A stretch of 64,000 bases of DNA from Longimicrobiales bacterium (GTDB lineage: Bacteria > Gemmatimonadota > Gemmatimonadetes > Longimicrobiales > Gaopeijiaceae). The DNA lies in the NCBI GenBank assembly GCA_965219445.1, contig CBDCNQ010000005.1:512001-576000 (forward strand), given 5' to 3'. Every line of letters begins with the position of its first letter. Position 1 is the stretch's first letter. Positions 1 to 27,563 of the stretch are shown piece by piece. The notes under the pieces were generated by a model. The model was given only the letters and a program-made list of their open reading frames with translations. It was not told where the DNA came from and did no database searches. Position numbers and translations under genes: made by a program.

Positions 1-2704
1 CCTGATCGTCGAACCGCCCCAGGAATTCCAACTGCCCATCTGAGCGCCACCGCACACGATCCCCCGTCACGTACAAACGCTCCCCCCTCTCGCCAAACGG
101 GTTCGGCACGAACCGCTCCGCTGTCAGGCCTGCTCGACCCCAGTACCCCCGAGCTAAACCCGCACCTCCGATGTACAACTCGCCCGCCACACCCACCGCC
201 ACCAACTGCATCCCCCCGTCCAGCACGTACAACGTCCATCCCGGTAATGGACGGCCGATCGCGCTGTGTCTCGTTGCACTCTCCTTAACATCCAATCTCT
301 TGAGCGTACTGTGGACAGTCGCTTCTGTGATCCCGTACATATTGCACAAGATCAGGTCGCTGTCCGCACGCTCCCGAAGCCAATCCTGAGTGCTCGTTAC
401 GTCCAGCGCTTCACCGCCCAGCACCACATATTTCACGCCACTTAGAAACGCCTCATCGCACTGACCATCGACGTTCCTGAGCTCCATGAACGCCGAAGGC
501 GTTTGGTTGACGATAGTAATTCCCTCGTCGCGAATAAACTCACCAAACGCTGTCGCCGACCTGCTTACCCAGAACGGCACAATGACCAGTCGAGATCCGT
601 GAAGCAGCGCGCCCCATATCTCCCACACGGAAAAGTCGAACGCATAGGAGTGGAATAGCGGCCAAGTATCCGATTCATCGAACCGAAAATGATGATCCGT
701 GGCCCTGAAGAGCCCCGCCACTGCACCGTGCGGGATCAGAACACCTTTCGGGGTACCCGTGGAGCCGGAGGTGTAGATGATATAGGCCAGGTTCTCGGGA
801 TCGACCGGCACCTGCAGATTCATCGTATCCGCGGTATCGAAGATCGGCTCCTCTCGATCGAGGTACACGACTTCCACGGCCAGTGACGGTACCCGGTCCA
901 CCAGACGCCGCTGCGTCAGTAATACCTCGACCTCACTGTCCTCCGCCATGAATGCCCGCCGCTTCGGCGGATAGTCAGGATCTAGTGGCACATACGCTCC
1001 GCCCGCCTTCAATGCCCCCAACATCCCCACTACCAACTCCATCCCACGCTCTACACACAGCCCTACCCGTACTTCCGGACCCACACCCAGCCGCCTCAGT
1101 TGATGCGCAACCTGATTCGCCCGCTCGTTCAGCTCTCTGTACGTATACCGCTCCCCCTCACACTCCACTGCAATCCCTTCCGGCGTTCGCTCCACCTGCC
1201 CTTCGAACAGCTCGTGAACACTCGCCTCCGGATACGATACCCCCGTCTCGTTCCACTCCTCCAACAGCTGCCGACGCTCGTCTTCACCCAGCATCGCCAT
1301 CTCATAAATCGGACACTCCACATCCTCCACCACACTCTCCAACAACCGCCCGTAATGTCCCATCATCCGCTCGATCGTCGCGCTATCGAACAGGTCCGTG
1401 CTGTATCCACAGCTGCCCACAACCGACCCGTCCTCCTTCTCCACAAGCATCGCAACCAGATCGAACTTGACGGACCGCCCTTTCGGGAGGGCGAAAGGGT
1501 ATCCGAACGAGGACCTTGCTTCAGAATGAGGTCGTACAGCTCTGAATCCAACAAACACCTGGAAGACCGGATTGTACGCCGGACTCCGTTCGACGTTGAG
1601 CTCCTCCACCAGCTTCGCGAACGGCAGATCCTGATGCTCGTACGCCTCCAGCGTCGTCTCACGAATCCGTCGCAGCACCTCCCGGAAGCTCGGCTCCCCC
1701 GACAGATCCGTCCGTAGCGCTAGCGTGTTGGTGAAGAACCCGATCAGTCCTTCGAATTCCTCTCGGCTACGGTTCGCGATCGATGTCCCGACGACGACAT
1801 CTTCCTGTCCCGAATACCGAGCCATCAGAACCTTGAACGCCGCCAGCAACACCATGAACAGCGTCGCACCTTCTTCCCGACCCAAAGCCCGCAAACCCTC
1901 CACCACCTCCGCTGGGATATCGAACCGCTCGCGCCCCCCTCGGTGACTCTGAACCGCCGACCGGGCTCGATCCGTCGGCAACTCCAACAACTCCGGAGCC
2001 CCCGATAACTTCCCCTTCCAGTACGTCAGCTGCCTCGCTAGCTCCCCACCCTCCAACCACTCTCGCTGCCACATGGCGTAGTCCGCATACTGCACCGGTA
2101 GCTCAGGCAATGGTGACGTCGCCGAACCACCCCCGTACGCCTCGTACAGCACACTCAACTCCCGGAACAGTACATCCATGCTCCATCCATCACTCACAAT
2201 GTGATGCATCGACAGAAGCAGGACATGCTCCGAATCGGACAACCTCAATAGCTCCGCCCGGAACAGTGGCCCTCGCTCCAGATCGAAGCCCCGCCCCGCC
2301 ATCTCCTCCGCCCGCTGCCGAATCTCCTCCTCCAACTCCGCCCCACCCAGACCCGTCAGATCCTCCCGCGGTAACTCCCACCCCCCAGCCTCTCCCACCA
2401 CCTGCCAAGGCTCCCCGTCAATCTCCACAAACGTCGTTCGCAACGACTCATGCCGACCGATCACCTCCCCAATCGCCCACTCTAACCCCCCAACATCCAA
2501 CACCCCAGACAGACGAACTCCAGATCTTAGTTTATACGCGTCGATTGTCTCACCTAGGGAATGTAGAAACCACAGGCCCGACTGGAGCGCACTAGTCGGT
2601 GCGAGGCGGATAGTGTGAGGCAGCCCGAGAAGTTCAGCGAAATCGACTCGTTTCACGGTGCCATTATAGTAGATGGTTTCTCTTCGCCGTTCCTGAAGAG
2701 GCAT
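1..2704 (-). CDS. NRPS gene 3 (C-A..., runs off the left edge); A domain predicted to activate Thr
   Basis: Not in the ORF track because it has no stop in the window; translated by hand from ATG 2704 (GTG 2722 possible). C-domain start APTSALQSGLWFL, MHHIVSDGWS, A3 YTSGSTGTPKG, FDFSVWEIWG, NQTPS, NMYGITEATVH. Pocket code read by eye as DFWNVGMVH(K), Thr-type. Confidence 0.9.
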   Translation of the reverse strand, partial: MPLQERRRETIYYNGTVKRVDFAELLGLPHTIRLAPTSALQSGLWFLHSLGETIDAYKLRSGVRLSGVLDVGGLEWAIGEVIGRHESLRTTFVEIDGEPWQVVGEAGGWELPREDLTGLGGAELEEEIRQRAEEMAGRGFDLERGPLFRAELLRLSDSEHVLLLSMHHIVSDGWSMDVLFRELSVLYEAYGGGSATSPLPELPVQYADYAMWQREWLEGGELARQLTYWKGKLSGAPELLELPTDRARSAVQSHRGGRERFDIPAEVVEGLRALGREEGATLFMVLLAAFKVLMARYSGQEDVVVGTSIANRSREEFEGLIGFFTNTLALRTDLSGEPSFREVLRRIRETTLEAYEHQDLPFAKLVEELNVERSPAYNPVFQVFVGFRAVRPHSEARSSFGYPFALPKGRSVKFDLVAMLVEKEDGSVVGSCGYSTDLFDSATIERMMGHYGRLLESVVEDVECPIYEMAMLGEDERRQLLEEWNETGVSYPEASVHELFEGQVERTPEGIAVECEGERYTYRELNERANQVAHQLRRLGVGPEVRVGLCVERGMELVVGMLGALKAGGAYVPLDPDYPPKRRAFMAEDSEVEVLLTQRRLVDRVPSLAVEVVYLDREEPIFDTADTMNLQVPVDPENLAYIIYTSGSTGTPKGVLIPHGAVAGLFRATDHHFRFDESDTWPLFHSYAFDFSVWEIWGALLHGSRLVIVPFWVSRSATAFGEFIRDEGITIVNQTPSAFMELRNVDGQCDEAFLSGVKYVVLGGEALDVTSTQDWLRERADSDLILCNMYGITEATVHSTLKRLDVKESATRHSAIGRPLPGWTLYVLDGGMQLVAVGVAGELYIGGAGLARGYWGRAGLTAERFVPNPFGERGERLYVTGDRVRWRSDGQLEFLGRFDDQ

Positions 2705-2734: not shown

Positions 2735-5527
2735 CTAGACATCCGGTGCACCTTGATCGGGCCTAACCCTTTTTCCCCTCACCTTCTCGATCACAAGCGC
2801 TTTCGCAGATTCGTCGAGTGCGGCCAGTCTCCGCTCGATGTCTTGCTCCAACCTCGTCTGCTTGGCGGTTACGGTGCTCGTCCTATAAGGGATGCTGATG
2901 ATATGCTGCCCCAATGACGCCACATCCGGGTGTTCGAACACTGCCACGAGGGAGACCTCCACACCAAGCTGGCTTCGGATACGCGTCTGGACCCGCGTGG
3001 CCAGAAGCGAATGGCCACCGAGTTCGAAGAAGTTGTCATGGATCCCGATTTCCTCGACCCCGAGAACCTCGCTCCAGATCTCGGCGATCACCTTTTCGAC
3101 CCGCGTCCGAGGCTCCACGTACTCGGCGAGTCCATCTCTTTGGTTCGTCGGCTCCGGTAGGCTGGCCCGGTCGATCTTGCCACTCGGGTTCAGTGGCAAC
3201 TCGTCCAGTGCCACCAAATAGTTCGGCACCATGAACTCAGGAAGTCGATCGCGCAGATACCGACGCACTTCGCCCGTCCCATCCGCCCTTCCCTCCAACA
3301 CCACATACCCAACCAGTTTTCGGTCCCCCTCCTCGTCCTCCTGCACTACCACCACCGCGTCACGCACCCGCTCGTGACCCATCAGCACCGACTCGACCTC
3401 GCCCGGCTCGATCCGAAATCCTCGCACCTTCACCTGATCGTCGAACCGCCCCAGGAATTCCAACTGCCCGTCTGAGCGCCACCGCACACGATCCCCCGTC
3501 ACGTACAAACGCTCCCCCCTCTCGCCAAACGGGTTCGGCACGAACCGCTCCGCTGTCAGGCCTGCTCGACCCCAGTACCCCCGAGCTAAACCCGCACCTC
3601 CGATGTACAACTCGCCCGCCACACCCACCGCCACCAACTGCATCCCCCCGTCCAGCACGTACAACCTCGTATTCGCAATCGGCTTACCAATCGGTGGGAG
3701 GGAGTGACCACCAAAATCCTCAATCCGCATCCGCCACTGGGTTACAACGTGCGTTTCGGTGGGCCCGTAGTGATTCACGATGTGGGAGCAGAAGGCATGG
3801 AGGAGCTGGCGGTGGAGGTCAGCGGAAAGAGTCAGCCGTTCTCCGGCGAACACGATTGTCTCCAAAGCCAACCCGTGACGGCCCTGCTCTCTCACGAGAT
3901 CACATAGATGCCTAAACTTCGATGGGGTCGTGAATATCCACGACCTTAGTTTCTCAGAGCTCTTGCCGAGAACCTCTGCCACCCGGGCCAACTCTGCATC
4001 CTCGCTTGCGTTCAGGCATCCCCCGGCCAGCAGAGGGGTGATAACCTCCTGAACCGATACATCAAAGCTCACCGTAGACGTCTGCCATACGTGAATTGGC
4101 GCCTCGGAGGCAAGCACCGATACCTGCCACTGCAAGAGATTGGCTAATCCGACGTGCCGGTACGAAACGCCTTTCGGGGTACCCGTGGAGCCGGAGGTGT
4201 AGATGATATAGGCCAGGTTCTCGGGATCGACCGGCACCTGCAGATTCATCGTATCCGCGGTATCGAAGATCGGCTCCTCTCGATCGAGGTACACGACTTC
4301 CACGGCCAGTGACGGTACCCGGTCCACCAGACGCCGCTGCGTCAGTAATACCTCGACCTCACTGTCCTCCGCCATGAATGCCAGCCGCTTCGGCGGATAG
4401 TCAGGATCTAGTGGCACATACGCTCCGCCCGCCTTCAATACCCCCAACATCCCCACTACCAACTCCATCCCACGCTCTACACACAGCCCTACCCGTACTT
4501 CCGGACCCACACCCAGCCGCCTCAGTTGATGCGCAACCTGATTCGCCCGCTCGTTCAGCTCTCTGTACGTATACCGCTCCCCCTCACACTCCACTGCAAT
4601 CCCTTCCGGCGTTCGCTCCACCTGCCCTTCGAACAGCTCGTGAACACTCGCCTCCGGATACGATACCCCCGTCTCGTTCCACTCCTCCAACAGCTGCCGA
4701 CGCTCGTCTTCACCCAGCATCGCCATCTCATAAATCGGACACTCCACATCCTCCACCACACTCTCCAACAACCGCCCGTAATGTCCCATCATCCGCTCGA
4801 TCGTCGCGCTATCGAACAGGTCCGTGCTGTATCTACAGCTGCCCACAACCGACCCGTCCTCCTTCTCCACAAGCATCGCAACCAGATCGAACTTGGCAGT
4901 GTGACTGTCTGTCGAAACCGACGTCGCCTCCAGTTCACCCAGCTTGAGCGCTCGCTTCTCCGGACTGCGGAGCGTGAACATCACCTGGAAGACCGGATGA
5001 TGTGCCAGACTCCGTTCGACGTTGAGCTCCTCGACCAGCTTCTCGAACGGCAGATCCTGATGCTCGTACGCGTCTAGCGTCGTCTCACGAACCCGTCGCA
5101 GCACCTCCCGGAAGCTTGGCTCCCCCGATAGATCCGTCCGTAGCGCTAGCGTGTTCAGGAAGAACCCGATCAGTCCTTCGAATTCCTCTCGGCTACGGTT
5201 CGCGATCACAGTCCCGACGACGACATCTTCCTGTCCCGAATACCGAGCCATCAGAACCTTGAACGCCGCCAGCAACACCATGAACAGCGTCGCACCTTCT
5301 TCCCGACCCAAAGCCCGCAAACCCTCCACCACCTCCGCTGGGATATCGAACCGCTCGCGCCCCCCTCGGTGACTCTGAACCGCCGACCGGGCTCGATCCG
5401 TCGGCAACTCCAACAACTCCGGAGCCCCCGATAACTTCCCCTTCCAGTAATCCACTTGTTTGCCTAACTCACGCTGCCGGTTCTGGCCCTCCATGTCGGC
5501 ATCCTCCGCCAAGATCTGCCGATTCAT
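2735..5527 (-). CDS. NRPS gene 2: half C domain (C-terminal lobe only)-A-PCP; A domain predicted to activate Pro or a Pro analogue
   Basis: 930 aa. Begins at YWKGKLSGAPELLELPTD with no HHxxxDG. FDVSVQE, NHYGPTETHVV give pocket code DVQFVAHVV(K), Pro-type. PCP DNFFELGGHSLL. Confidence 0.92.
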   Translation of the reverse strand: MNRQILAEDADMEGQNRQRELGKQVDYWKGKLSGAPELLELPTDRARSAVQSHRGGRERFDIPAEVVEGLRALGREEGATLFMVLLAAFKVLMARYSGQEDVVVGTVIANRSREEFEGLIGFFLNTLALRTDLSGEPSFREVLRRVRETTLDAYEHQDLPFEKLVEELNVERSLAHHPVFQVMFTLRSPEKRALKLGELEATSVSTDSHTAKFDLVAMLVEKEDGSVVGSCRYSTDLFDSATIERMMGHYGRLLESVVEDVECPIYEMAMLGEDERRQLLEEWNETGVSYPEASVHELFEGQVERTPEGIAVECEGERYTYRELNERANQVAHQLRRLGVGPEVRVGLCVERGMELVVGMLGVLKAGGAYVPLDPDYPPKRLAFMAEDSEVEVLLTQRRLVDRVPSLAVEVVYLDREEPIFDTADTMNLQVPVDPENLAYIIYTSGSTGTPKGVSYRHVGLANLLQWQVSVLASEAPIHVWQTSTVSFDVSVQEVITPLLAGGCLNASEDAELARVAEVLGKSSEKLRSWIFTTPSKFRHLCDLVREQGRHGLALETIVFAGERLTLSADLHRQLLHAFCSHIVNHYGPTETHVVTQWRMRIEDFGGHSLPPIGKPIANTRLYVLDGGMQLVAVGVAGELYIGGAGLARGYWGRAGLTAERFVPNPFGERGERLYVTGDRVRWRSDGQLEFLGRFDDQVKVRGFRIEPGEVESVLMGHERVRDAVVVVQEDEEGDRKLVGYVVLEGRADGTGEVRRYLRDRLPEFMVPNYLVALDELPLNPSGKIDRASLPEPTNQRDGLAEYVEPRTRVEKVIAEIWSEVLGVEEIGIHDNFFELGGHSLLATRVQTRIRSQLGVEVSLVAVFEHPDVASLGQHIISIPYRTSTVTAKQTRLEQDIERRLAALDESAKALVIEKVRGKRVRPDQGAPDV

Positions 5528-8500
5528 TGTGACTGTTCCCGACTCCCCAATCGCTTGAGAAGTTCCTCAGCAAACGTTGGATCAAGAGAATGCATCTGAC
5601 TTGCAATCTCATCAATCATTCCTGCCTGATCACGCGTGGCAGGCGACGGCACCGATGACACATCTCGCAGAGGGCGACTCATTGCGTGCATCTCATAAAT
5701 CGGACGCTCCACATCCTCCTCCACACTCTCCAACAACCGCCCGTAGTGTCCCATCATCCGCTCGATCGTCGCGCTATCGAACAGGTCCGTGCTGTATCTA
5801 CAGCTGCCCACAACCGACCCGTCCTCCTTCTCCACAAGCATCGCAACCAGATCGAACTTGGCAGTGTGACTGTCTGTCGAAACCGACGTCGCCTCCAGTT
5901 CACCCAGCTTGAGCGCTCGCTTCTCCGGACTGCGGAGCGTGAACATCACCTGGAAGACCGGATGATGTGCCAGACTCCGTTCGACGTTGAGCTCCTCGAC
6001 CAGCTTCTCGAACGGCAGATTCTGATGCTCGTACGCGTCTAGCGTCGTCTCACGAACCCGTCGCAGCACCTCCCGGAAGCTTGGCTCCCCCGATAGATCC
6101 GTCCGTAGCGCTAGCGTGTTCAGGAAGAACCCGATCAGTCCTTCGAATTCCTCTCGGCTACGGTTCGCGATCACAGTCCCGACGACGACATCTTCCTGTC
6201 CCGAATACCGAGCCATCAGAACCTTGAACGCCGCCAGCAACACCATGAACAGCGTCGCACCTTCTTCCCGACCCAAAGCCCGCAAACCCTCCACCACCTC
6301 CGCTGGGATATCGAACCGCTCGCGCCCCCCTCGGTGACTCTGAACCGCCGGCCGGGCTCGATCCGTCGGCAACTCCAACAACTCCGGAGCCCCCGATAAC
6401 TTCCCCTTCCAGTACGTCAGCTGCCTCGCTAGCTCCCCACCCTCCAACCACTCTCGCTGCCACATGGCGTAGTCCGCATACTGCACCGGTAGCTCAGGCA
6501 ATGGTGACGTCGCCGAACCACCCCCGTACGCCTCGTACAGCACACTCAACTCCCGGAACAGTACATCCATGCTCCATCCATCACTCACAATGTGATGCAT
6601 CGACAGAAGCAGGACATGCTCCGAATCGGACAACCTCAATAGCTCCGCCCGGAACAGTGGCCCTCGCTCCAGATCGAAGCCCCGCCCCGCCATCTCCTCC
6701 GCCCGCCGCCGAATCTCCTCCTCCAACTCCGCCCCACCCAGACCCGTCAGATCCTCCCGCGGTAACTCCCACCCCCCAGCCTCTCCCACCACCTGCCAAG
6801 GCTCCCCGTCAATCTCCACAAACGTCGTTCGCAACGACTCATGCCGACCGATCACCTCCCCAATCGCCCACTCTAACCCCCCAACATCCAACACCCCAGA
6901 CAGACGAATTCCCTTCGACACGGTGTAAAACGCATCGCCAGGATACATACGATCCAAAAACCACAGCCGCTCCTGTGCGCGCGAAAGCCACAAACGCTCC
7001 TCGCCCGGGGCTCGCCTCACCCCGCCCTCCTCGACGACCAGCCCACACTCGGCATCCTGCGCAAGAGACGCCACCTCAGGGCTCTCGAACATCCTCCGGA
7101 GCGGGACCTCCACACCAAGCTGGCTTCGGATACGCGTCTGGACCCGCGTGGCCAGAAGCGAATGGCCACCGAGTTCGAAGAAGTTGTCATGGATCCCGAT
7201 TTCCTCGACCCCGAGAACCTCGCTCCAGATCTCGGCGATCACCTTTTCGACCCGCGTCCGAGGCTCCACGTACTCGGCGAGTCCATCTCTTTGGTTCGTC
7301 GGCTCCGGTAGGCTGGCCCGGTCGATCTTGCCACTCGGGTTCAGTGGCAACTCGTCCAGTGCCACCAAATAGTTCGGCACCATGAACTCAGGAAGTCGAT
7401 CGCGCAGATACCGACGCACTTCGCCCGTCCCATCCGCCCTTCCCTCCAACACCACATACCCAACCAGTTTTCGGTCCCCCTCCTCGTCCTCCTGCACTAC
7501 CACCACCGCGTCACGCACCCGCTCGTGACCCATCAGCACCGACTCGACCTCGCCCGGCTCGATCCGAAATCCTCGCACCTTCACCTGATCGTCGAACCGC
7601 CCCAGGAATTCCAACTGCCCATCTGAGCGCCACCGCACACGATCCCCCGTCACGTACAAACGCTCCCCCCTCTCGCCAAACGGGTTCGGCACGAACCGCT
7701 CCGCTGTCAGGCCTGCTCGACCCCAGTACCCCCGAGCTAAACCCGCACCTCCGATGTACAACTCGCCCGCCACACCCACCGCCACCAACTGCATCCCCCC
7801 GTCCAGCACGTACAACCTCGTATTCGCAATCGGCTTACCAATCGGTGGCTCTTTAGAGCCACGCTCGCAGCGAGCTGACGTTACATTGACAGATGCCTCG
7901 GTTGGACCGTAGAGATTGAACATTCGACGACCCGTCCCCCATCTCCGAACCAATTCCTCGGGGCAACGTTCTCCGCCAACCAGCAGCGTCGTCAGATCTT
8001 CGAATTCGACCTCCGGTAGGTGGCTGCACACGGTAGGTGGCAACTTGGCGTTCGTGATGCAGTGCTTGCGCAAGAAGTCGACAAGCCCCCGTCCGGGCAG
8101 CAGGGCCTCTCCCACCGCAATATGCAAGGTAGCCCCCGAGTGGATCGCCATCGAAATCTCTGCAATCGCCGCGTCGAAGCCAAACGACGCAAATTGGAGG
8201 ACCGCCGTCCTCGGTCCCGTGTCGAACCTGTCTATCCGATCCAAACTCACATTGGATATGCCCCTGTGCGGGATCAGAACACCTTTCGGGGTACCCGTGG
8301 AGCCGGAGGTGTAGATGATATAGGCCAGGTTCTCGGGATCGACCGGCACCTGCAGATTCATCGTATCCGCGGTATCGAAGATCGGCTCCTCTCGATCGAG
8401 GTACACGACTTCCACGGCCAGTGACGGTACCCGGTCCACCAGACGCCGCTGCGTCAGTAATACCTCGACCTCACTGTCCTCCGCCATGAATGCCAGCCGC

Positions 8501-9624: not shown

Positions 9625-10076
9625 CGAACTGCCAAGGGTTCCGTGTGGCGTCGGGTCGACTCACTAGAAAGGGGCCCCACAAACTCTCGCTCTCGCCCCC
9701 GAGTTGAACCCTCTCGCGAGACCAATTCAGCCTTCCCAGTGGTGGTATTTGCAAGCCGCAAGCTCCTGACCTTGGATCGCAGAAAACGCGGATGAATCGA
9801 CCGGGTATCATGTAGAAAGGCAGCAGGCCCTCCAATCCGCTCCGGCAAATTGACGATACTTGCTCCCGCGGGCGGTCCGAGACATGCCGGCCGGAGTGCG
9901 CTGAGCCTGCCTGTCCAATAGCTCGTGTAGAAGAAGGTTTCTCCGCATCCGTCACATCACGTCAAATGCACCGCGGAGCCGCCATCGCCGCCTCGCGATC
10001 GTAGGTCATGTCTCCCGACCGGAAGCCCTCCCGAAGCATGGACGGCACAAACTTTTCACGTCCTAGGAGGCTTGGA

Positions 10077-10292
10077 TCACGCACCCTCCGGAGTTGATTC
10101 CTCCATCTTCCGTCGCAGCGAAAGTGGGCGCATATCGGTCCACACTTCGCTGATATAAGCCAGGCACTCCTCCTTGCTCCCCCGCTTCCCTGCATCCCGC
10201 CACCCAGGAGCGTTTTCACGCTCCGCGAACCAGATGGAGTACTGCTCCTCTTGGTTGATCACAACTCGATAGACCCTGCCCTCTTCACTCAT
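10077..10292 (-). CDS. mbtH: MbtH-like protein
   Basis: NQEEQYSIW...PGWR...[17 protein letters not shown] is the MbtH signature; start taken at ATG 10292. Confidence 0.95.
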
Positions 10293-15480: not shown

Positions 15481-15514
15481 CGCACCTATCGATAACCCCA
15501 GCATCGAGGTAGCC

Positions 15515-16855: not shown

Positions 16856-16979
16856 ATTTGTCCCATCGTGACCCGACTTAGATTGAATCCGATCTCCTTC
16901 GTGCTCGGAAATTGACTCTTCTTCCAGCATCGCCCGAAACTAGGCCTTACCCTCTGTGAGTGGCGGATTATTTCGACTT

Positions 16980-17660: not shown

Positions 17661-17674
17661 TGGGGACCCGAACT

Positions 17675-18619
17675 CTAGCAGGCCTTGAAATTGTATCCCC
17701 GTGTCGTCGCAGTCACCGAACGATTGTGGTGATAGTCGTCGCGACCACTCACCAGTACGACGCCGTACTTTTCGAGATTGACCCTGTCACCGAACTCCTC
17801 TAGGAACATCGTGTCCGGATAGACTGCTACGCATGGCGGGACGTACCGCGCTGCGAATCCGAGACGCATCATTCGTGTCTTCCCTGCATGAGGATGCGAC
17901 GCATGCATCAGTGTGGACCAGAACATCACCGCTTCCCCCGGGCGCATCACGATTGATACAGCCAGCGATTCATCAGGCATCCACTCAGGATCCAACTGCA
18001 ACTCACGGTAGTCATATCCAAAAAACCCCCTCCGGACTCCGCGCTTATCGATCATGTTTATGTCCTGCGGCGAGTAATGCATGCCCTTCGACTCGTCGTA
18101 GAACATCCGCTCATGCGTGCCGGGCACGAATTGGAGGCAACCCGTCTCCTCATTCGAGTCCGTGAACGCCGTCCATACAGTGATGGTCCCTCCGAATTTC
18201 TTGAGGTGTTCCGGCCAGACGATCTGAGGCTTGCCCGAAGCATTCGCAAACGTGTCTGCCTGGTGCCAGTCCGTACCTTCGTCGCCGGGATACTTGGCAA
18301 AGAACTCAGTGCGCCAGCAAACGATGTCCGGACCTAATGCGCCCTGCACCCGGCTGATAATCCCCGGGTGACAAACATGGTCCGCAAGTAGCTCACAGTC
18401 GAGATGGCGATCGTAGTTCATGATGGTACTCTTCGGCGAAGAGTGGTTCTGCCCCGAGTAAACCGCGAAAGTCCGATCGAGTAGCTCAATGCGCTGTCGC
18501 TGCCAGCGGGTCCGCATCTCCTCCGGCTCATAGAGCTTGAATGGCCCGAGATACCCCTGCTCCTGGAATCGCGCGTGATCCTCCGCAGTCAGTGCACCCA
18601 ACATGTCAGTGTCGCTCAT
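17675..18619 (-). CDS. syrB2: SyrB2-like non-heme Fe(II)/2-oxoglutarate carrier-protein-dependent halogenase
   Basis: [39 protein letters not shown] and FWSTLMHAS closely follow SyrB2 as recalled. HQA replaces HxD/E, giving the halide-binding site. Confidence 0.93.
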
Positions 18620-18730
18620 TGTTCACCCTTCCTTCCACCCTGGCGGGAACAGGACTCGTGTCGCCGTGCACCCCTTAGAATAACGACTGGAGCGTGTGGC
18701 GTCATCCTGATCCCTTGAGCACTGGGCAGC

Positions 18731-19579
18731 CTAGTGGTACATGAACTGACCGCCGTTGACGTGAAGGGCCTGACCAGTGATGAAGGATCCGCCATCACCA
18801 GCGAGAAACACGCAGGCCATGGCGACGTCCTCGACGCGTCCGATTTTTTTCATCGGTATCTGCCGGAGACGTATCTGCAACCAGTCCCTTGGATACTGGC
18901 TCCAATCTCGCTCCGTGTCGATCGATCCCGGAGAGACTGTGTTGGCCGTTATGCCACAGGCTGCGAACTCGATCGAAATAGCCTTTGTGAGAGCGTGTAA
19001 CCCTGCCTTGGAGACGATGTTGTGCGCACGGGCCTCGATGTGCCCCGCAAAGCCGTCCTCACCGGCAATATGGATGATCCGTCCCCGCCTGGATTCTATC
19101 ATTCCGGGGAGGACAGCCCTAGCGAGGTAGAACGCCGCGTTGAGGTTGGTGTTAAGCGTGTCGTTCCAGTCCTTCAACGAAATCTCGAGAAACGGCTGAC
19201 GCCGCCGTTTCCCGACGTTCGAGACTGCAATGTCCACCCTTCCGAAACGGCGCTCCGCCGCATCAACCATCTTTAGGACTTGATCCGGGTCACCGACGTC
19301 GGCGAGATGTTTCACCGCCACGCCACCGTCTTCTCCGATCTTCCGCACGACTTGATCCAGCGCGGCCACGTCGCGGCGCCCGTTAACAACGATGTTCGCG
19401 CCAGCACGAGCCAGACCCAATGCTATCGCCCGACCAATGTTCCGACCAGCGCCAGTCACGATGGCAGTCCGTCCTGCCAGCTGCGGCCCTCCACCGTTGT
19501 CTCCAGGCGAATCTGTCAACCCGCTCCCTGTGGCAGTCACGCGCTTATAGCCTTCTCTGATATGACCCTCGAGGAACAT
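18731..19579 (-). CDS. Short-chain dehydrogenase/reductase (FabG-like)
   Basis: TGAGRNIG Rossmann motif and NTVSPG; the catalytic YxxxK appears as NIVSK. Confidence 0.9.
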   Translation of the reverse strand: MFLEGHIREGYKRVTATGSGLTDSPGDNGGGPQLAGRTAIVTGAGRNIGRAIALGLARAGANIVVNGRRDVAALDQVVRKIGEDGGVAVKHLADVGDPDQVLKMVDAAERRFGRVDIAVSNVGKRRRQPFLEISLKDWNDTLNTNLNAAFYLARAVLPGMIESRRGRIIHIAGEDGFAGHIEARAHNIVSKAGLHALTKAISIEFAACGITANTVSPGSIDTERDWSQYPRDWLQIRLRQIPMKKIGRVEDVAMACVFLAGDGGSFITGQALHVNGGQFMYH

Positions 19580-19609
19580 CGTGGTCGCGCGGAAAGATCC
19601 ATGGACGTC

Positions 19610-20953
19610 TCAGCAGCCGACCAACCGCGCATATTCCTTGATCGAGCCGACATCGAAGTTCTGCAGCGCGTCGAACAGCGACGCCGTGTTCCCTTGGCCC
19701 AGAACGGGCTCGACGAGTTGCTCGAACTTCGCCTTGACTTGCCTCCAGTTCATGGGGTTCTGAGGATCACCCGGCGCCACGGATTTGCCGGACTTCAGTG
19801 ACGTGTCATCGGCCAGGCGGACCTCGATCCAGGCGGAACTTCTATCACATGTGTCGTCTGTCAGCAGCTCTGTTCGCTGCACCAGAGCGCGGAGAGTCGG
19901 GTCCAGCACCTTTTCGTCTGAGAAGTCGGCCACGGTTCCTCGATGGCCGGTAAGGCCAAGTGCAGCGCAGTACGCGGCGGAAAATTTTCCTTCGAGGCCG
20001 GTCTCCGGCGCCATCTTACCCGCGATGCACCGTGTCACGGGGCTGATCCAGATCCGGATCCCAGATATTTCTCTCCCCTTCACTTGATTGGATAAGTCGA
20101 GCGCGGATTCAATCACTGGGTGGGTCAGTCTGCAACATGCGTACAGTTTAGGGGCGTTCTGCATCAGCTCCCAGTCTCCGTGGGGATTGAACACCTGAAC
20201 TGGTACGGACCTATCCTGCACCAGCGCGGTTACCAAAGGTCCTGCCGGCTCCAATACGTCGGCGGCGGCTACGAAGCCTTGCGCAGCAAGCTCAGCTGCG
20301 ATTACACCATTCATCGCTGCCTTGCCGGCATGTAGTGGCTTCGCCATGGTGCCGAAAGAGGCAACCAGACCGCCCGTCTGTGTTGCGGCCGCTCCTAGGG
20401 CGTTCCGAATGCCGTCTTCATCTAGGTTGAGTACGATGCCCGCGGCAGCCGCCGACGCAAGACATCCCAGCACTCCGGTCGAATGCAGACCTCGAATGTT
20501 CAGGGCGGGACCGAGGCCATTGCGGCCGAGCCTCGCACCGATCTCGAACCCTCCGATGAACGCAGAGAGGATGTCTCGTTCTTCGGCTCCCGTATGTAGC
20601 CCTAGAGCGAGCGCCACGCTCCACACGGGGTTGCTGAGATGCGCGGCAGAGCTGGCGTGCGTGTCGTCGTAGTCGAGAGAGTGGCCCATTGTTGCGTTCA
20701 CGAGCGCGGCCGCGACGGGAGCTACGCGTCCACCGCATAGGATTTGCGCCTCTCCGCTGGTACTCCAGCCGAGGGCGACCTGGCGGGCGAACTGCGCTGC
20801 TGGCTCCGCGTGCCCTCCGATCGCGACCCCGATGCTATCAGCGAGGCTCCGGCGCGCGACGTCAACAACCTCGGGAGGGAAGCTCATTTCCTTTACCGAA
20901 GCGACAAACCGACTCGCGACTTCGGTGCTCGTGGAACTTGAATTTGATTTCAC
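19610..20953 (-). CDS. MmgE/PrpD family protein
   Basis: NATMGHSLDYDDTH..AHLS, GLHSTG, KPLHAG, KLYACC..TH, KFS, GDPQNPM. GTG 20953 is preferred over the track start at 21136. Confidence 0.9.
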   Translation of the reverse strand: MKSNSSSTSTEVASRFVASVKEMSFPPEVVDVARRSLADSIGVAIGGHAEPAAQFARQVALGWSTSGEAQILCGGRVAPVAAALVNATMGHSLDYDDTHASSAAHLSNPVWSVALALGLHTGAEERDILSAFIGGFEIGARLGRNGLGPALNIRGLHSTGVLGCLASAAAAGIVLNLDEDGIRNALGAAATQTGGLVASFGTMAKPLHAGKAAMNGVIAAELAAQGFVAAADVLEPAGPLVTALVQDRSVPVQVFNPHGDWELMQNAPKLYACCRLTHPVIESALDLSNQVKGREISGIRIWISPVTRCIAGKMAPETGLEGKFSAAYCAALGLTGHRGTVADFSDEKVLDPTLRALVQRTELLTDDTCDRSSAWIEVRLADDTSLKSGKSVAPGDPQNPMNWRQVKAKFEQLVEPVLGQGNTASLFDALQNFDVGSIKEYARLVGC

Positions 20954-21375
20954 TGGTTTTCGGGGGCAGGACGTTTGTGAAGAGGCGAACGCCAGTTGCT
21001 GGCATCTGATAGGACACACGCCGACTGGTCCGCGCACCGATGGGAAACGCTGATCGTTCTGAGAATCGTCAACATTACATAGCTCAAGCGGCGTGCAAGT
21101 CCAGCCGGCGTTCGAGATCGCGAGTTGCCGCCGCAACTTCGCCTCCCATCATATCGAGAACCAATATCTTAGCAATATAGGGAGATGACCAATGTCGCTG
21201 ATAAGCTCAAGACCTTAGTCGAAAGCCACCACGAACAACGCAAAGACTGTGGGCAAATGGCGAATCGATAGCGCGCGCACCGAGTCCCTTGTGCCCCGAT
21301 GTAATCAAGCCTAAGATCCGGCTTACTACAAGGTAGTACTGAAGGTCGAAGGCCGCTGGGAAGGGAGATCGAAGC

Positions 21376-22509
21376 ATGATCCGTATCGTGGATAGCACGC
21401 TTCGGGAGGGCTGTCAGTCGGCCGCGGGTCGCTTCACCATCGAGCAAAGCCAGGAGATCGCGCGGCTCTTGCGAGCCGCCGGGGTCGACATGATCGAGTG
21501 TGGTCACGCGAGCATCGATGCGGAAGAGCTGCGGAGAATTGCCGCAGTGACAGAAGTCGTCGGGAACGTGCCAGTCCTCTCACACGCGCGTGCCTGTCCC
21601 TTGGATGTTGATCGTGCAGCAGAGAGCGGGGCCTCTTGGGTGGGGATTTTTCTCGGCTGCAACAGCCTCACCCGGAAGGCTCGGCTGCCAGGAAGAAGCC
21701 GAAGAGAACTCCTGAGGATGGCGCGGGAGAGCGTGTCTCGGGCACGCCGCCGTGGTCTTCAAATACGCTTTACTGTGGAAGACGCGAGTCGGACACCTCT
21801 TGACCTGATGCTAGATCAGTTTCGGGTAGCACTTGAGTCCGGGGCGGATCGCCTTTGCATTGCGGATACAATCGGCCTGTTGGAGCCGCCATTGACTAGC
21901 AAAGTTGTTTGCGAGTTCCGCGAGAGGTTCCCGGAGGTCCCCTTGGAAGTGCACATGCACGACGACCGTGGGTTAGCATTGGCGAACGTTCTTGCGGCGG
22001 TAGACGCCGGAGCCACATGGGTTTCCACCTCTGTGAACGGTCTGGGCGAACGTGCGGGCATCACTGATCTCGCAGCCCTTGAGCTTAACCTTCACGTCCG
22101 GGGGGACCGACTGCTCACCTGTGGGGAGTCCCTTCAAGAGCTGAGCCGGCGTGTCGGTGCTTACTCGCGGTCCAGGCCGGATTTCCGCCGGCCGGTAGTT
22201 GGTCGGGATGCGTTCACACACGCCAGTCGCCTTCATCGGCTTGCAATGCAACGGGACACTTCAGCATACGAGCTGGTGGACCCCGCGATCGTGGGCAGGT
22301 CTCGCATAATTGAGCTGCCGGAGTCTCGTTCGGAGGAGGCAGTGACGGCGCGGCCTTCAACCAACGGCACGTCTCGGTCGGTGAGTTCGCCACCGCGGGA
22401 ACAGCACTCGAGATTCGGATCGAAGAAGCCTTCTCGCGTAGTCGGAGACGGTGAAGACCGGGCGCGGTCGCCCGGCGATGTGAAGCAAAGGCCGATGCCG
22501 TCCTTTTAA
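21376..22509 (+). CDS. Homocitrate synthase/LeuA-like DRE-TIM acyl-CoA:2-oxoacid condensing enzyme
   Basis: DSTLREG, IADTIG, HMHDD, NGLGERAG; no LeuA regulatory domain. Confidence 0.9.
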   Translation: MIRIVDSTLREGCQSAAGRFTIEQSQEIARLLRAAGVDMIECGHASIDAEELRRIAAVTEVVGNVPVLSHARACPLDVDRAAESGASWVGIFLGCNSLTRKARLPGRSRRELLRMARESVSRARRRGLQIRFTVEDASRTPLDLMLDQFRVALESGADRLCIADTIGLLEPPLTSKVVCEFRERFPEVPLEVHMHDDRGLALANVLAAVDAGATWVSTSVNGLGERAGITDLAALELNLHVRGDRLLTCGESLQELSRRVGAYSRSRPDFRRPVVGRDAFTHASRLHRLAMQRDTSAYELVDPAIVGRSRIIELPESRSEEAVTARPSTNGTSRSVSSPPREQHSRFGSKKPSRVVGDGEDRARSPGDVKQRPMPSF

Positions 22510-22784
22510 GTACCTACCTGTGGATACGCTCCTCGGCTGGAGCAAGAATGACTTGAGCGACGCTGCTCAGACGAGGGGGTGCCGAGCCTGTTCGAGTGGC
22601 CGGAAGAGTAGAGACGGGCTTTGAGACTCCTGGGGAGGGCGATCCGAGGTGTCGGTGCATGGCTCGGAGTTGGGGATAGATTCTTCCGTTCCCAGATCGG
22701 GGATCCTGCTTTGCTTCGTTTAGTCCAGCCAATGAGTCGGAGTAGACGAACGGTGGGTCAGACGCCTGATGATGGGAAGTTGAG

Positions 22785-25700
22785 GTGACAATGACTACAG
22801 GGAAAGTGATCCGGAACGCAGCGACGCCGGAGACTCTCGAGGTGGAGGTACCGGAGAACGGGATCCCGGCGTCGTGTGAGGTGATCAGGCCAGAGATGCT
22901 GCCGCTTGTGGAGTTGGATCAGACGGAGATCGAGGGGATCGTGGCGGGAGTGGAGGGCGGAGCGAGGAACGTGCAGGACATCTATGCGCTTGCTCCGTTG
23001 CAGGAAGGGATCCTGTTCCACCACCTGATGGCGGGGGAGGGGGATCCCTACCTGCTATCGCACCTGATGGGCTTCGACAGTCGAGAGCGGTTGGAAGCGT
23101 ACGTGGGGGCTTTGCAGGCAGTGATCGACCGACACGACATCTTGCGAACGGGGGTGGTGTGGGAAAGGCTCCGGGAGCCGGTACAGGTGGTGTGGCGCAA
23201 GGCTCGGCTAGTGGTAGAGAAGGTTGAGTTTGACGCGGCCGAGGGTGACGTGGCGGAGCAGCTGTGGGAGTGGTTCGATCCGAGGCAGTACAGGATGGAT
23301 GTGGGTCAAGCGCCGCTGATGCGGGCTTATGTGGCCCACGATGAGGTTCGGGGGCGCTGGCTGCTGCTGCTGCTGCGGCATCACCTCATTAGCGACTACA
23401 CGACGCTGGAGGTGCTGCAGGCGGAGATTGAGGCGCACCTTTTGGGTCGTGCGGACGTGCTACCCGTTCCGCTGCTTTTCCGGAACTATGTGGCTCAGGC
23501 TCGATTGGGCGTGAGTGCAGCGGAGCACGAGGTTTTTTTCGGGAAGCTGTTAGGCGACGTGGAGGAGCCGACGGCACCGTATGGTCTGCTGGACGTGCAG
23601 GGCGATGGGGGGGGGATCGAAGAAGCGCGGCTGAAAGTGGACGGGGCGCTGGCGGGTCGGCTGCGCGAGCGAGCGAGGAAGCTGGGAGTGAGTGCTGCGA
23701 GTCTATGTCATGTGGCGTGGGCGCAGGTACTGGCGCGTGTATCGGGCCGCGAGGACGTTGTATACGGCACGGTGTTGTTTGGTCGCATGCAGGGTGGAGA
23801 GGGATCGGACCGAGTGATGGGTCTGTTCATCAACACGCTACCGGTACGTATCGGAGTGGGTGAGGAGGGAGTGGAGGCGAGTGTGCGGCGTACGCACACG
23901 CTGCTGGCTGATCTGCTGCGTCACGAGCACGCGTCGCTGGCACTGGCGCAGCGGTGCAGTGGAGTAGAGGCACCGACGCCGTTGTTCACGGCGCTACTGA
24001 ATTACCGCCACAGCGGGGGTGGGGGGCGAGCCCGATCAGCGGAGGCACGGCGGGGCATCGAGCGGCTCAGGGGCGAGGAGCGCACGAACTATCCGCTGAC
24101 GCTGTCGGTGGACGATCTGGGCGAGGAGTTCGGGCTGACGGTGCAGGTACGGGCTTCGGTGGGGCCGATGCGGGTGTGTGCGTTGATGCATCGGGCGCTG
24201 GAGGTGCTGGTGGGCGCGCTGGAGAGTGCGCCGGATCGTGCGCTGGGGAGCCTGGACGTGCTCCCGGAGTCTGAGCGCAGACAGGTGGTGGAAGAGTGGA
24301 ACGCGACGGAGGTCGCGTTTCCGAGCGATATGTGCGTGCATGAGTTGTTCGAGACTCAGGTTAAACGCACACCCGACGCTGAAGCGGTGCTGTTTGAGGA
24401 CGAGCGTCTGAGTTATGCGGAGCTGAACGCTCGCGCGAATCAGCTGGCTCACTATCTAATAGAGGGGGGAGTGGGTCCGGACGCTCGGGTGGCGATCTGC
24501 GTAGAGCGCTCGATCGAGCTGGTGGTGGGTCTGTTGGGGATCTTGAAGGCGGGCGGCGCGTATGTGCCGCTCGATCCTGAGTACCCGGTCGAGCGGCTGA
24601 GGTACATGCTCGACGACAGTGCTCCGGTGGTGGTATTGACACAAGGGTCACAGGCGGGGCTCTTTGAGGGGCTGAGCGAGAAGGTACCGGTGCTCGAGCT
24701 CGATGCACCGCAGTGGGCGGACCGACCGGATACGAACCCGGATCGTGAGGGGGTGGGGCTGACGTCGGATAATCTGGCGTACGTGATTTACACGTCGGGC
24801 TCCACTGGTCAGCCCAAGGGGGTCATGGTCGAGCACCGAGAGCTGGTGAACTTCATCGACTGGTATCGGCGAGAATTCCGGATCTCGGAGCGCGATGCGG
24901 TCCTGATTGCAACGTCTTACAGCGCGGCCCTGACACAAAAGAACCTGTTCAGTCCGCTGTTCGCAGGCGGACAGGTGCACCTGGCGAGCGAGCCGTTCGA
25001 TCCGCAGGGTATTCTAGCGCATATCGTGGAATGCCGGATCAGCATGATGAATCTGACGTCGTCCGCGTTCCACTCGCTCATCGACGCGAGTCGGGCCGGT
25101 GAGTTTATCGGGGTGCGGCTCGTGGTCCTGAGTGGAGAGGCGACACGGCCGAGGAAGCTGATGGAGCTTGCGGAGCCCCGGCCGGAGCTCGTGAGCGTGT
25201 ACGGGTCGACTGAGGTTTTGGGGGTGGCTTACCACCGCATGTCGCCGGACCTGGAGACATACCTGGATCGGTCAGTTCTGCTGGGCGACCCGATCAGTAA
25301 CGCTCGGATCTACATCGTGGACGGTCGAGGCGAGCCGGTGCCGGTGGGAGTGGTCGGTGAGCTGTACATCGGGGGTGCGGGAGTGGCGCGTTGCTACCAG
25401 AACCGACCGGAACTGACGGCGGAGCGTTTCATCCCGGACTGGTTCAGCGGCGAAGCGCATGCACGACTGTACCGAACGGGAGACCTGGGTCGGTGGCTAC
25501 CGGACGGTACGATCGAGTTCGTGGGCCGCAACGACGATCAGGTGAAGGTGCGGGGCTATCGGATCGAGTTGGGCGAGATCGAGGCACGGCTGGGTGAGCA
25601 TGCTGCGGTACGTGAGGCTGTGGTGCTGGCTCGTGAGGATGCTCCGGGTGACAAGCGACTGGTGGCATACTACGTGGGTGAGCAGGCTGTGGGAGCGGAG

Positions 25701-27563
25701 GTACTACGCGTGCATCTACTGGAGCGCCTGCCGGAGTACATGGTTCCAGCGGCTTATATGCGGCTGGACGTGTTGCCACTGACGGCGAACGGTAAGGTGG
25801 ACCGGAGGGCGCTACCGGCGCCTGAGGGTGATGCGTATGTGAGGCGCGGCTACGAGGCACCGGTGGGCGAGACGGAGGATGCGTTGGTAGAGCTGTGGCA
25901 GGAGGTGTTGGGAGTTGAGAGAGTGGGTCGTTGGGACAACTTCTTCGAGTTGGGCGGGCACTCGCTGTTGGTGGTGACGCTGCTCGAGCGTATGCGGCGA
26001 CGGCGGCTGCATGTGGAGACGCGTGCGCTGTTCACAATGCCGACGCTGGTGGGGTTCGCGGCTGCGGTGGGTGGCGAGACTCTCGAGGTGGAGGTACCGG
26101 AGAACGGGATCCCGGCGTCGTGTGAGGTAGTCAGGCCGGAGATGCTACCGCTTGTGGAGTTGGATCAGACGGAGATCGAGGGGATTGTCGCGGGAGTGGA
26201 GGGCGGAGCCAGGAACGTGCAGGACATCTATGCGCTTGCTCCGTTGCAGGAAGGGATCCTGTTCCACCACCTGATGGAGGGCGAGGGGGATCCCTACCTG
26301 CTATCGCACCTGATGGGCTTCGACAGTCGAGAGCGGTTGGAAGCGTACGTGGGGGCTTTGCAGGCAGTGATCGACCGACACGATATCTTGCGAACGGGGG
26401 TGGTATGGGAAGGGCTACGGGAGCCAGTACAGGTGGTGTGGCGCAAGGCTCGGCTAGTGGTAGAGGAGGCGGAGTTGGATCCGGCCGAGGGTGACGTGGC
26501 GGAGCAGCTGTGGGAGTGGTTCGATCCGAGGCAGTACAGGATGGATGTGGGTCAGGCGCCGCTGATGCGGGCCTACGTGGCTCACGATGAGGTTCAGGGG
26601 CGCTGGCTGCTGCTGCTGCTGCGGCATCACCTCATTAGCGACCACACGACGCTGGAGGTGTTGCAGGCGGAGATTGAGGCGCACCTATTGGGTCGTGCGG
26701 ACGTGCTACCCGTTCCGCTGCCGTTCCGGAACTACGTGGCACAGGCGCAGCTGGGAGTGAGCGCGGCGGAGCACGAGCGGTTCTTCGGGGAGCTGTTGGG
26801 TGACGTGGAGGAGCCGACGGCACCGTTCGGTCTGCTAGACGTGCAGGGCAATGGGACGGGGATCGAGGAAGCGCGGCTCGAGGTGGAGAGGGCACTGGCG
26901 GGTCGGTTGCCGGCGAGCGCGAGGAAGCTGGGGGTGAGCGTAGCGTGCGTGTGTCATGTGGCGTGGGCGCAGGTCCTCGCGCGTGTGTCGGGTCGTGAGG
27001 ATGTGGTGTTTGGCACGGTGCTGGTCGGTCGGATGCAGGGCGGTGAGGGAGCCGACCGAGTGATGGGTCCGTTCATCAACACACTGCCGATGCGGATCCG
27101 GGTAGGTGAGGAGGGAGTGGCGATGAGCGTGCGACGTACACACACGCTGCTGGCGGACCTGCTGCGTCATGAGCATGCGTCGCTGGCGATGGCTCAGAGA
27201 TGCAGTGGAGTGCAGGCACCTACGCCGTTGTTCTCAGCGCTTCTGAACTTCCGACACCATGGGGGTGAGGGTAGGAAGGCCCACTCTCTGGAGGTGCGGC
27301 AGGCGTGGAAGGGCATCGAGAGGCTCAGAGTCGAGGAGCGTACGAACTATCCGCTGACGCTGTCGGTGGATGATCTGGGTGAGAGCTTCCGACTCACGGC
27401 GAAGGCAGAGGGTTCGGTCGGACCGAAGCGCGTGTGCTTGCTGATGCATCGTGCACTGGAGGTGCTGGTGGAGGCGCTGGAGGAGGCGCCGGAGACGGCG
27501 GTGGGGAGCCTGGACGTGCTCCCGGAGCGAGAGCGCACGCAAGTCGTGGTGGAATGGAGCTAG
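22785..27563 (+). CDS. NRPS fragment: dual E/C-A-PCP-dual E/C, truncated by IS630
   Basis: QDIYALAPLQEGILFHHLxxxxGDPY (dual E/C motif) occurs twice; HHLISD; A3/A7/A8/A10 motifs; PCP GGHSLL. It starts in an inter-module linker and ends VVEWS* at an IS630 CTAG. Confidence 0.88.
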   Translation: MTMTTGKVIRNAATPETLEVEVPENGIPASCEVIRPEMLPLVELDQTEIEGIVAGVEGGARNVQDIYALAPLQEGILFHHLMAGEGDPYLLSHLMGFDSRERLEAYVGALQAVIDRHDILRTGVVWERLREPVQVVWRKARLVVEKVEFDAAEGDVAEQLWEWFDPRQYRMDVGQAPLMRAYVAHDEVRGRWLLLLLRHHLISDYTTLEVLQAEIEAHLLGRADVLPVPLLFRNYVAQARLGVSAAEHEVFFGKLLGDVEEPTAPYGLLDVQGDGGGIEEARLKVDGALAGRLRERARKLGVSAASLCHVAWAQVLARVSGREDVVYGTVLFGRMQGGEGSDRVMGLFINTLPVRIGVGEEGVEASVRRTHTLLADLLRHEHASLALAQRCSGVEAPTPLFTALLNYRHSGGGGRARSAEARRGIERLRGEERTNYPLTLSVDDLGEEFGLTVQVRASVGPMRVCALMHRALEVLVGALESAPDRALGSLDVLPESERRQVVEEWNATEVAFPSDMCVHELFETQVKRTPDAEAVLFEDERLSYAELNARANQLAHYLIEGGVGPDARVAICVERSIELVVGLLGILKAGGAYVPLDPEYPVERLRYMLDDSAPVVVLTQGSQAGLFEGLSEKVPVLELDAPQWADRPDTNPDREGVGLTSDNLAYVIYTSGSTGQPKGVMVEHRELVNFIDWYRREFRISERDAVLIATSYSAALTQKNLFSPLFAGGQVHLASEPFDPQGILAHIVECRISMMNLTSSAFHSLIDASRAGEFIGVRLVVLSGEATRPRKLMELAEPRPELVSVYGSTEVLGVAYHRMSPDLETYLDRSVLLGDPISNARIYIVDGRGEPVPVGVVGELYIGGAGVARCYQNRPELTAERFIPDWFSGEAHARLYRTGDLGRWLPDGTIEFVGRNDDQVKVRGYRIELGEIEARLGEHAAVREAVVLAREDAPGDKRLVAYYVGEQAVGAEVLRVHLLERLPEYMVPAAYMRLDVLPLTANGKVDRRALPAPEGDAYVRRGYEAPVGETEDALVELWQEVLGVERVGRWDNFFELGGHSLLVVTLLERMRRRRLHVETRALFTMPTLVGFAAAVGGETLEVEVPENGIPASCEVVRPEMLPLVELDQTEIEGIVAGVEGGARNVQDIYALAPLQEGILFHHLMEGEGDPYLLSHLMGFDSRERLEAYVGALQAVIDRHDILRTGVVWEGLREPVQVVWRKARLVVEEAELDPAEGDVAEQLWEWFDPRQYRMDVGQAPLMRAYVAHDEVQGRWLLLLLRHHLISDHTTLEVLQAEIEAHLLGRADVLPVPLPFRNYVAQAQLGVSAAEHERFFGELLGDVEEPTAPFGLLDVQGNGTGIEEARLEVERALAGRLPASARKLGVSVACVCHVAWAQVLARVSGREDVVFGTVLVGRMQGGEGADRVMGPFINTLPMRIRVGEEGVAMSVRRTHTLLADLLRHEHASLAMAQRCSGVQAPTPLFSALLNFRHHGGEGRKAHSLEVRQAWKGIERLRVEERTNYPLTLSVDDLGESFRLTAKAEGSVGPKRVCLLMHRALEVLVEALEEAPETAVGSLDVLPERERTQVVVEWS

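Follow-up and report, generated by a model that had tools for sequence, protein, structure and literature searches.

In syringomycin biosynthesis, which follows the SyrB1/SyrB2/SyrC/SyrE logic, the halogenase SyrB2 chlorinates Thr held on the stand-alone protein SyrB1 and SyrC transfers the product, as set out in the accessible part of PMC8949500. Part of another report describes 4-chloro-Thr in actinomycins G and Z and a halogenase in the acmG cluster (PMC13425752), and the CytC1-3 and CmaA-E systems of cryptic chlorination (PDB 3gja) use the same enzyme family. Here we analyze a nonribosomal peptide synthetase (NRPS) island of a Longimicrobiales bacterium (phylum Gemmatimonadota; GCA_965219445.1, 4.56 Mb in 5 contigs, completeness 91.8%), in which a SyrB2-type Fe(II)/2-oxoglutarate (2OG) halogenase occurs without such a carrier and is accompanied by a candidate cassette for cysteate. 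The window, the whole stretch of 64,000 nucleotides that was analyzed, covers positions 512001-576000 of contig CBDCNQ010000005.1 (hereafter C5); coordinates without prefix are window positions. The island is real, partly eroded by insertion sequences (IS), and has no match in the sources searched, including a literature search that found no description of the cluster, the cassette or the EPSPS-like subfamily discussed below, most subscription papers being outside its reach.

The locus resembles syringomycin in its halogenase family and pocket motif (PDB 2fct) and in a line that ends in a Thr position before a thioesterase (TE). It differs in that its last module, of condensation (C), adenylation (A), thiolation (T, carrier) and TE domains, has its own A domain, C-A(Thr)-T-TE, where syringomycin has C-T-TE, in having neither SyrB1, SyrC nor a starter C domain, and in its seven modules with different residues. 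The actinomycins G and Z, of unrelated scaffold, are NRPS peptides that contain 4-chloro-Thr and have an accessory halogenase, and the part of that report consulted offers a possible precedent for a similar route. With CytC1-3 and CmaA-E the locus shares the enzyme family, and module 2 of nrpsE shares Val330 and a carrier motif with their Val/Ile-type partners; unlike those systems it has no stand-alone A or T protein and no CmaC, CmaD or CmaE match, and its pocket motif is of the SyrB2 type.

An Intact SyrB2-Type Halogenase

The halogenase gene (17675-18619, minus strand) is intact, and its product scores 429.5 bits against TIGR01762 (cut-off 226.3) and has SyrB2 as its best match in the PDB (E 9e-130). 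The Fe, 2OG and halide residues are all kept (H119-Q-A121, H239, R252 and R258), with H119, A121, H239, R252 and R258 invariant across 46 aligned sequences including its own, and 150 of 158 conserved columns are retained, the 8 departures comparing with 0-17 in relatives. Its sequence predicts that the enzyme likely chlorinates a carrier-tethered amino acid.

The 18-residue pocket motif is as in SyrB2 and unlike that of CytC3 and of Val/Ile-partnered enzymes. In a quick maximum-likelihood tree of 29 rows (a subset of an 82-row set), where substrate labels come from neighboring A-domain codes and genes and not from assays, the halogenase nests in a nine-row clade (SH-aLRT 97) whose other eight members are six Thr-partnered and two carrier-only enzymes. 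Approximately unbiased (AU) tests reject placing it with the Pro-partnered enzyme (p 8e-8) or with the three enzymes labeled piperazate-type (p 6e-4). Pro, a candidate substrate in that nrpsC is nearly a stand-alone A-T protein, was set aside on the rejected grouping with that one Pro-partnered halogenase. Elsewhere, at positions 8576-13140 of locus L233 (genome G1042), a SyrB2-family halogenase has a discrete carrier and an A domain of the Pro type (DVQFVAQVVK) next to it, a candidate chloroproline system.

A Seven-Module NRPS Line and No Stand-Alone Carrier

Open reading frame (ORF) and domain scans give the minus-strand transcription order MbtH, nrpsB, nrpsC, nrpsD, CysM-like, ApgM-like, nrpsE, SnoaL-like and short-chain dehydrogenase/reductase (SDR) genes. 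Specificity codes were extracted at the positions that we take to correspond to those of GrsA. The MbtH-like gene (10077-10319, minus strand, PF03621) precedes nrpsB (5524-9624, minus strand), which encodes a half-C domain without HHxxxDG, an A domain (DAAKLGLVNK), a T domain and a complete C domain and is likely the initiating protein of the line. It is followed by nrpsC (2735-5527, minus strand), with a half-C, a Pro-type A (DVQFVAHVVK) and a T domain, and by nrpsD (C5 508195-514722, 2175 aa; its 5' part at 1-2722 of the window, minus strand), with the order C-A(Thr, DFWNVGMVHK)-T-C-A(DSSKVGHVAK, Asp/cysteate-like)-T. Left of the window, nrpsE (C5 495528-505949) encodes three modules and a TE, C-A-T-C-A-T-C-A-T-TE, with the codes DLFNCCLTYK (A1, Ala-like), DALWLGGVFK (A2, Val-like) and DFWNVGMVHK (A3, Thr). 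Codes were compared with the reference codes of PMC12858407 (Supp. Table 7, part of the source available), where Pro is DVQFIAHVVK.

The HHxxxDG motif is kept in every complete C domain of nrpsB-E and missing from the half-Cs of nrpsB and nrpsC; the complete C domain at the end of nrpsB makes the line continuous. All four genes are intact ORFs that together form a line ending in a TE, with MbtH and a separate intact 4'-phosphopantetheinyl transferase (PPTase; C5 479993-480982, left of the window). From the specificity codes, the predicted product is X-Pro-Thr-Cya-Ala-Val-Thr (Cya, cysteate), with no epimerase domains in the line. Short-read contigs from four sequencing runs of one study fail to bridge the repetitive NRPS genes, and the module order thus rests on the assembly.

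The cluster extends beyond the part described in an earlier note, running ~32 kb past the left edge of the window, with the rest of nrpsD, the CysM-like and ApgM-like genes, nrpsE, the SnoaL-like ORF and a second SDR. The Thr-type A domain of that note is indeed embedded in an elongation module, but it is not the only one: a second, identical at 267 of 267 residues to that of nrpsD module 1, lies in the terminal C-A-T-TE module. Across modules, C domains, A flanks and some T domains share 92-100% DNA identity and the specificity cores differ (2735-9624 and C5 495528-514722), a pattern that subdomain swapping or gene conversion would leave, judging by sequence. The SnoaL-like ORF (C5 495100-495471) and SDR (C5 494282-495136) close the operon after nrpsE.

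The assembly holds eight NRPS A domains, all within nrpsA-E, and 14 matches to PF00550, of which eight lie in nrpsA-E and the other six outside any ORF with an NRPS A domain. No stand-alone NRPS A-T protein of the SyrB1 kind was found in this 91.8% complete assembly, and tblastn (E<1e-3) gave no match in it for three aminoacyltransferase-type queries (alpha/beta-hydrolases from halogenase loci, used as the SyrC/CmaE-type search), CmaC, CmaD or a halogenase acyl carrier protein. The absence of a SyrB1/SyrC-like gene, which had been reported for the window, is thus true of the whole assembly, and no such pair lies just outside the window or elsewhere in it. At C5 844150-844836 (G000), two tandem carrier domains occur in a 2147-aa open frame, probably a polyketide synthase.

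For comparison, we assembled 49 loci with 51 family members. A search of 401 Streptomyces genomes supplied 33 of its 40 places (the 7 weakest omitted) and one of 251 Pseudomonas genomes 8 of 32; Burkholderia added 1 place of 2, plasmid records 6 of 33 and a class-wide search 3 of 4. All 51 halogenases have a stand-alone A-T or T protein within 5 kb, and 40 of them within 1 kb, which makes the absence of a carrier here unusual.

Candidate Carriers for Chlorination

Because no stand-alone carrier, SyrC, CmaE or CmaC was found in the assembly while 51 of 51 comparison enzymes have a carrier, chlorination on the assembly line itself is the best reading of the locus, and we consider it probable. 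The halogenase would bind in trans to a T domain that carries its aminoacyl group and has yet to undergo condensation. The simplest target would be the Thr module at the end of the line, so that the peptide would, like syringomycin, have 4-chloro-Thr at its C terminus, here with no need of SyrB1 or SyrC. That the amino acid chlorinated on a carrier domain within the line is in particular Thr, as the most likely residue, we propose tentatively. The earlier claim that Thr is chlorinated directly on the line draws support from the Thr-partnered clade of the halogenase, and the sequence after the Ser of the terminal Thr T domain is unique; the claim finds none in the residue before that Ser. Thr precedes the pantetheinylated Ser in 24 of 46 stand-alone halogenase carriers (17 of 20 Thr-type) versus 1 of 65 T domains in C-containing proteins, a contrast among kin that are not independent, for which the Fisher p is overstated and the module pattern is blind to GV-type motifs. 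Among stand-alone carriers, the residue before the Ser (Thr, His or Asn) follows the halogenase clade.

Several observations weigh against chlorination of Thr on the line. Both Thr T domains carry GGHS, and Thr before Ser, present in all six carriers checked of the halogenase's own subclade, occurs here on nrpsE T1 and T2 only; nrpsD T1 is identical to the T domain of nrpsB and therefore offers no special docking surface. The nearest T domains lie 7.3 and 10.4 kb from the halogenase, in C-containing proteins, and the halogenase shares a gene row with a PrpD gene whose two best plasmid relatives are surrounded by genes of transport and catabolism. The halogenase is on a long branch (0.8), and its grouping with Val/Ile/CmaB enzymes is not clearly rejected (p-AU 0.050). 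The comparison loci are biased toward kin, 32 of 49 coming from the Streptomyces genus search, though the contrast is still complete. The island is also decaying, with a frameshifted PPTase remnant (17116-17472, minus strand) adjoining the halogenase, a duplicate halogenase and PPTase remnant split by IS256 (C5 481758-484749, ~30 kb left of the window), a truncated nrpsA and a split permease.

The carrier motif points instead to on-line chlorination of another residue, in the manner of CytC3, on nrpsE, either at its module 2, for Val or aminobutyrate, or at its Ala-like module 1, the T domains of both having GGTS. The A2 code of nrpsE has Val330, shared by 5 of 14 stand-alone halogenase-partnered Val/Ile-type codes and none of seven module Val codes, and the long halogenase branch leaves room for a shift in specificity. 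The tree and the pocket motif nevertheless favor Thr, and nrpsE A2 and all eight T domains match elongation modules best, so that no stand-alone A-T protein has apparently been absorbed; we regard a Val or Ala target as unlikely. A predicted complex of the halogenase with nrpsE T2 (score 0.22, mark 0.32) weighs neither way. A SyrB1-like A-T protein fused into the line was also considered for the Thr modules and found no support, the top BLAST matches of the Thr A core being module domains; in a quick tree the core grouped with stand-alone domains (AU p 0.133, with 3 of 32 rows dropped).

The same decay that complicates chlorination on the line would be expected if the halogenase were an orphan, its SyrB1-like carrier (and SyrC) lost or left behind in IS-driven rearrangement and the peptide unchlorinated or the NRPS itself decaying. 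The stand-alone carriers of all 51 comparison enzymes, the adjacent PPTase pseudogene, the IS-split duplicate, the truncated nrpsA, the ~4.3 kb of IS before the NRPS operon and a genome that is 91.8% complete are all in line with such a loss. Yet the halogenase has an intact ORF and all its catalytic residues, its departures from conserved columns lie well inside the range of its relatives, all four genes of the line are intact, and the assembly is in five long contigs, with contigs of run X1 matching three stretches of the tailoring genes without a difference; an orphan enzyme is a serious rival reading, somewhat unlikely but less so than a Val or Ala target. SyrB2-type enzymes hydroxylate when their substrate is mis-positioned, and the halogenase might hydroxylate, or its chlorine might be cryptic and lost in the closure of a small ring, for which the SnoaL-like protein encoded after nrpsE is a possible catalyst. 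In the actinomycin G and Z congeners, Thr is either chlorinated or hydroxylated (PMC13425752, as far as the accessible part goes). The HxA halide site is intact, however, the annotated ORFs of the cluster include no flavoprotein cyclase, and the earlier suggestion of cryptic chlorination leading to ring closure lacks the expected partner, there being no CmaC-like match in the assembly, which leaves hydroxylation or cryptic chlorination very unlikely. If chlorination does take place on the line, a halogenase that works on a carrier within a multi-module NRPS would reveal how such enzymes recognize their carriers, with the Thr-before-Ser motif as a direct lead, and would be a simple tool for peptide chlorination on engineered lines.

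A Candidate Cysteate Cassette

The best-supported tailoring unit of the cluster is a pair of genes within the NRPS operon, left of the window, that encode a CysM-like pyridoxal phosphate (PLP) enzyme (C5 507226-508164) and an ApgM-like metalloenzyme (C5 505946-507229). The CysM-like enzyme belongs to a subfamily of ~50% identity, with CysM and O-phosphoserine sulfhydrylase as closest structures, that was found often in NRPS loci and also in polysaccharide-type loci, and was not found in 400 genomes of the phylum at E<=1e-70. Among the best 80 of 141 metagenome loci with a CysM-like gene (L095-L174), 39 have an ApgM-like gene (38 with a query of our own) and 15 a GHMP kinase; the two never occur together, and the remaining 26 loci, many on short contigs, have neither. 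As gene content goes, this split fits two interchangeable routes to a phospho-amino acid.

NRPS A domains occur in 25 of the 80 loci and are readable in 20, of which 11 show the code DxTK(M/L/F)GH(V/C)GK, some loci being near-duplicates; the A cores of these loci are the top matches of nrpsD A2. Cysteoamide and JBIR-95 are reportedly grouped with discodermin as cysteic acid compounds. According to the accessible part of PMC12858407, it is unclear where sponge peptides such as discodermin obtain their cysteic acid, and the discodermin cysteic acid module (DscC_A8) has the code DSTKIGHVGK, predicted as Asp, in a producer without recognized cysteate genes. The nrpsD A2 code DSSKVGHVAK equals it at 7 of 10 positions and is likewise Asp-like with a small residue at position 236; unlike the discodermin cluster, as far as that part of the source describes it, the island has its CysM-like and ApgM-like pair inside the NRPS operon. 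Because the cassette-linked codes and the discodermin code resemble that of nrpsD A2, cysteate is our best guess for the substrate of nrpsD module 2, held with roughly even confidence against another acidic beta-substituted alanine or plain Asp, which the code by itself also predicts.

The ApgM-like enzyme would phosphorylate serine, and the CysM-like enzyme would exchange the phosphate for sulfite, yielding L-cysteate for nrpsD module 2, a candidate new route to cysteate in which the cassette could serve as a genome-mining marker for sulfonated peptides. Two points count against it: the CysM-like enzyme reaches 128.7 bits on the CapA cysteate synthase model (NF053679, cut-off 600), and no sulfite-supply genes were found among the cassette neighbors scanned, one PF01507 gene lying elsewhere in the genome. 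None of the 80 CysM-like loci has a halogenase, EPSPS-like, DRE-TIM or PrpD gene.

A Non-Canonical EPSPS-Fold Protein

To the right of the NRPS operon, a gene at 15515-16855 (plus strand) encodes a protein with the fold of 5-enolpyruvylshikimate-3-phosphate (EPSP) synthase (EPSPS). It resembles AroA in fold (AlphaFold2 model, pLDDT 94) and family score (TIGR01356, 304 bits, cut-off 287), and differs from it in that the catalytic Asp is replaced by Asn and Lys-Glu by His-Lys; we take the catalytic residues to be Asp313 and Lys340/Glu341 in the numbering of the Escherichia coli enzyme. The replacing residues (N314, H341 and K342) are invariant in 66 of 66 subfamily sequences, the 65 top matches of the protein are 40-48% identical to it, and by these signatures the protein belongs to a distinct, uncharacterized subfamily. 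A housekeeping AroA with canonical residues is encoded on contig C2; a glyphosate-type resistance copy was rejected on the replaced catalytic residues. The Atlas search returned EPSPS clusters only.

Among the best 80 of 109 genome loci with an EPSPS-like gene (L003-L082), 59 also have a PhyH dioxygenase, a heme-oxygenase-like enzyme and an ATP-grasp ligase, partners for which a search of this genome at E<=1e-10 gave no match. These clusters, found in Streptomyces, Burkholderia, Pseudoalteromonas and others (e.g., L074:8673-17355, L243, L244), also hold a DUF1611 gene and an aminotransferase or malic enzyme. The widespread EPSPS-like/ATP-grasp cluster, of which the subfamily is a marker and for which the literature search found no description, is likely a dipeptide antimetabolite pathway.

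A few EPSPS-like loci adjoin NRPS genes. The A cores closest to nrpsB A1 come from a Longimicrobium NRPS cluster that also has an EPSPS-like gene and includes a similar code (DSAKTGAVRK), a weak hint that the EPSPS-fold enzyme might supply residue X. That cluster (L194-L198, L012; G426:C194) has more than 20 A domains and ends in ABC transporters, an M20 peptidase, a radical S-adenosylmethionine (SAM) enzyme and the EPSPS-like gene. A working pathway that joins all of these parts, with a SyrB2-type halogenase acting without SyrB1 or SyrC on an elongation carrier, cysteic acid from the CysM/ApgM (or GHMP kinase) route and an EPSPS-made starter residue, is as a whole unlikely.

Setting of the Island and Neighboring Genes

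The inventory of the window in the earlier note, of X-Pro-Thr modules, MbtH, a SyrB2-like HQA halogenase, an EPSPS-fold protein, a DRE-TIM enzyme, an MmgE/PrpD protein and an SDR, was confirmed, but its view of these tailoring genes as one set draws no support from gene co-occurrence: none of the 80 EPSPS-like loci carries a DRE-TIM, PrpD, CysK, ApgM or SyrB2-type gene, and eight have weak, PhyH-level halogenase matches only (22-27%). No co-occurrence was found that links the FabG-like SDR (18731-19579, minus strand), the MmgE/PrpD protein (19610-21136, minus strand; closest solved structure, IDS epimerase) or the DRE-TIM acetyl-CoA condensing enzyme (21376-22509, plus strand; homocitrate/isopropylmalate synthase-like) to the NRPS line. 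The DRE-TIM enzyme shares 45-47% identity with biosynthetic genes of the isopropylmalate-synthase-like kind that lie in small clusters. To their right, the nrpsA fragment (22785-27563, plus strand) has the order C/E-A-T-C/E, with the C motif HHLISD, presumably of the dual condensation/epimerization (C/E) type, and an A domain that lacks the amine-binding Asp235. The fragment begins inside a linker and runs up to a multicopy IS-like element, and is therefore read as a relic; its GC content at third codon positions (GC3) is 0.76, and it is likely of separate origin. The DRE-TIM, PrpD, window SDR and nrpsA genes may be passengers or relics.

An IS21 remnant with IS110 and IS256 elements (10828-15064, no strand assigned) lies between the NRPS operon and the tailoring genes and accounts for the ~4.3 kb of IS that separates the latter from MbtH. 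The halogenase was not found in 40 relatives of the host, and the cluster genes have a GC3 of 0.61-0.72 versus 0.73-0.78 for two nearby efflux genes, both in line with a foreign island. The island, riddled with IS, was likely acquired horizontally; for two enzymes of the cluster, the nearest relatives with a name come from Longimicrobiaceae/Gemmatimonadota. Contigs of run X1, possibly the source sample, match the window at 15039-16990, 16961-18056 and 18700-22859 with 0 differences, and both halogenase alleles are present in contigs of one study.

Farther right, an isolated gene for a B12-dependent radical SAM enzyme (45735-47549) lies near IS elements, 18 kb from nrpsA; it was considered as a cluster member and left unassigned, its identity to genes of related clusters being 22-28% only. 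Positions 28207-36284 hold a split ADOP-type permease, TolC, HlyD and an ABC ATPase, interrupted by IS, and a related permease is encoded at C5 487432-489912, so that similar exporters lie on both sides of the island.

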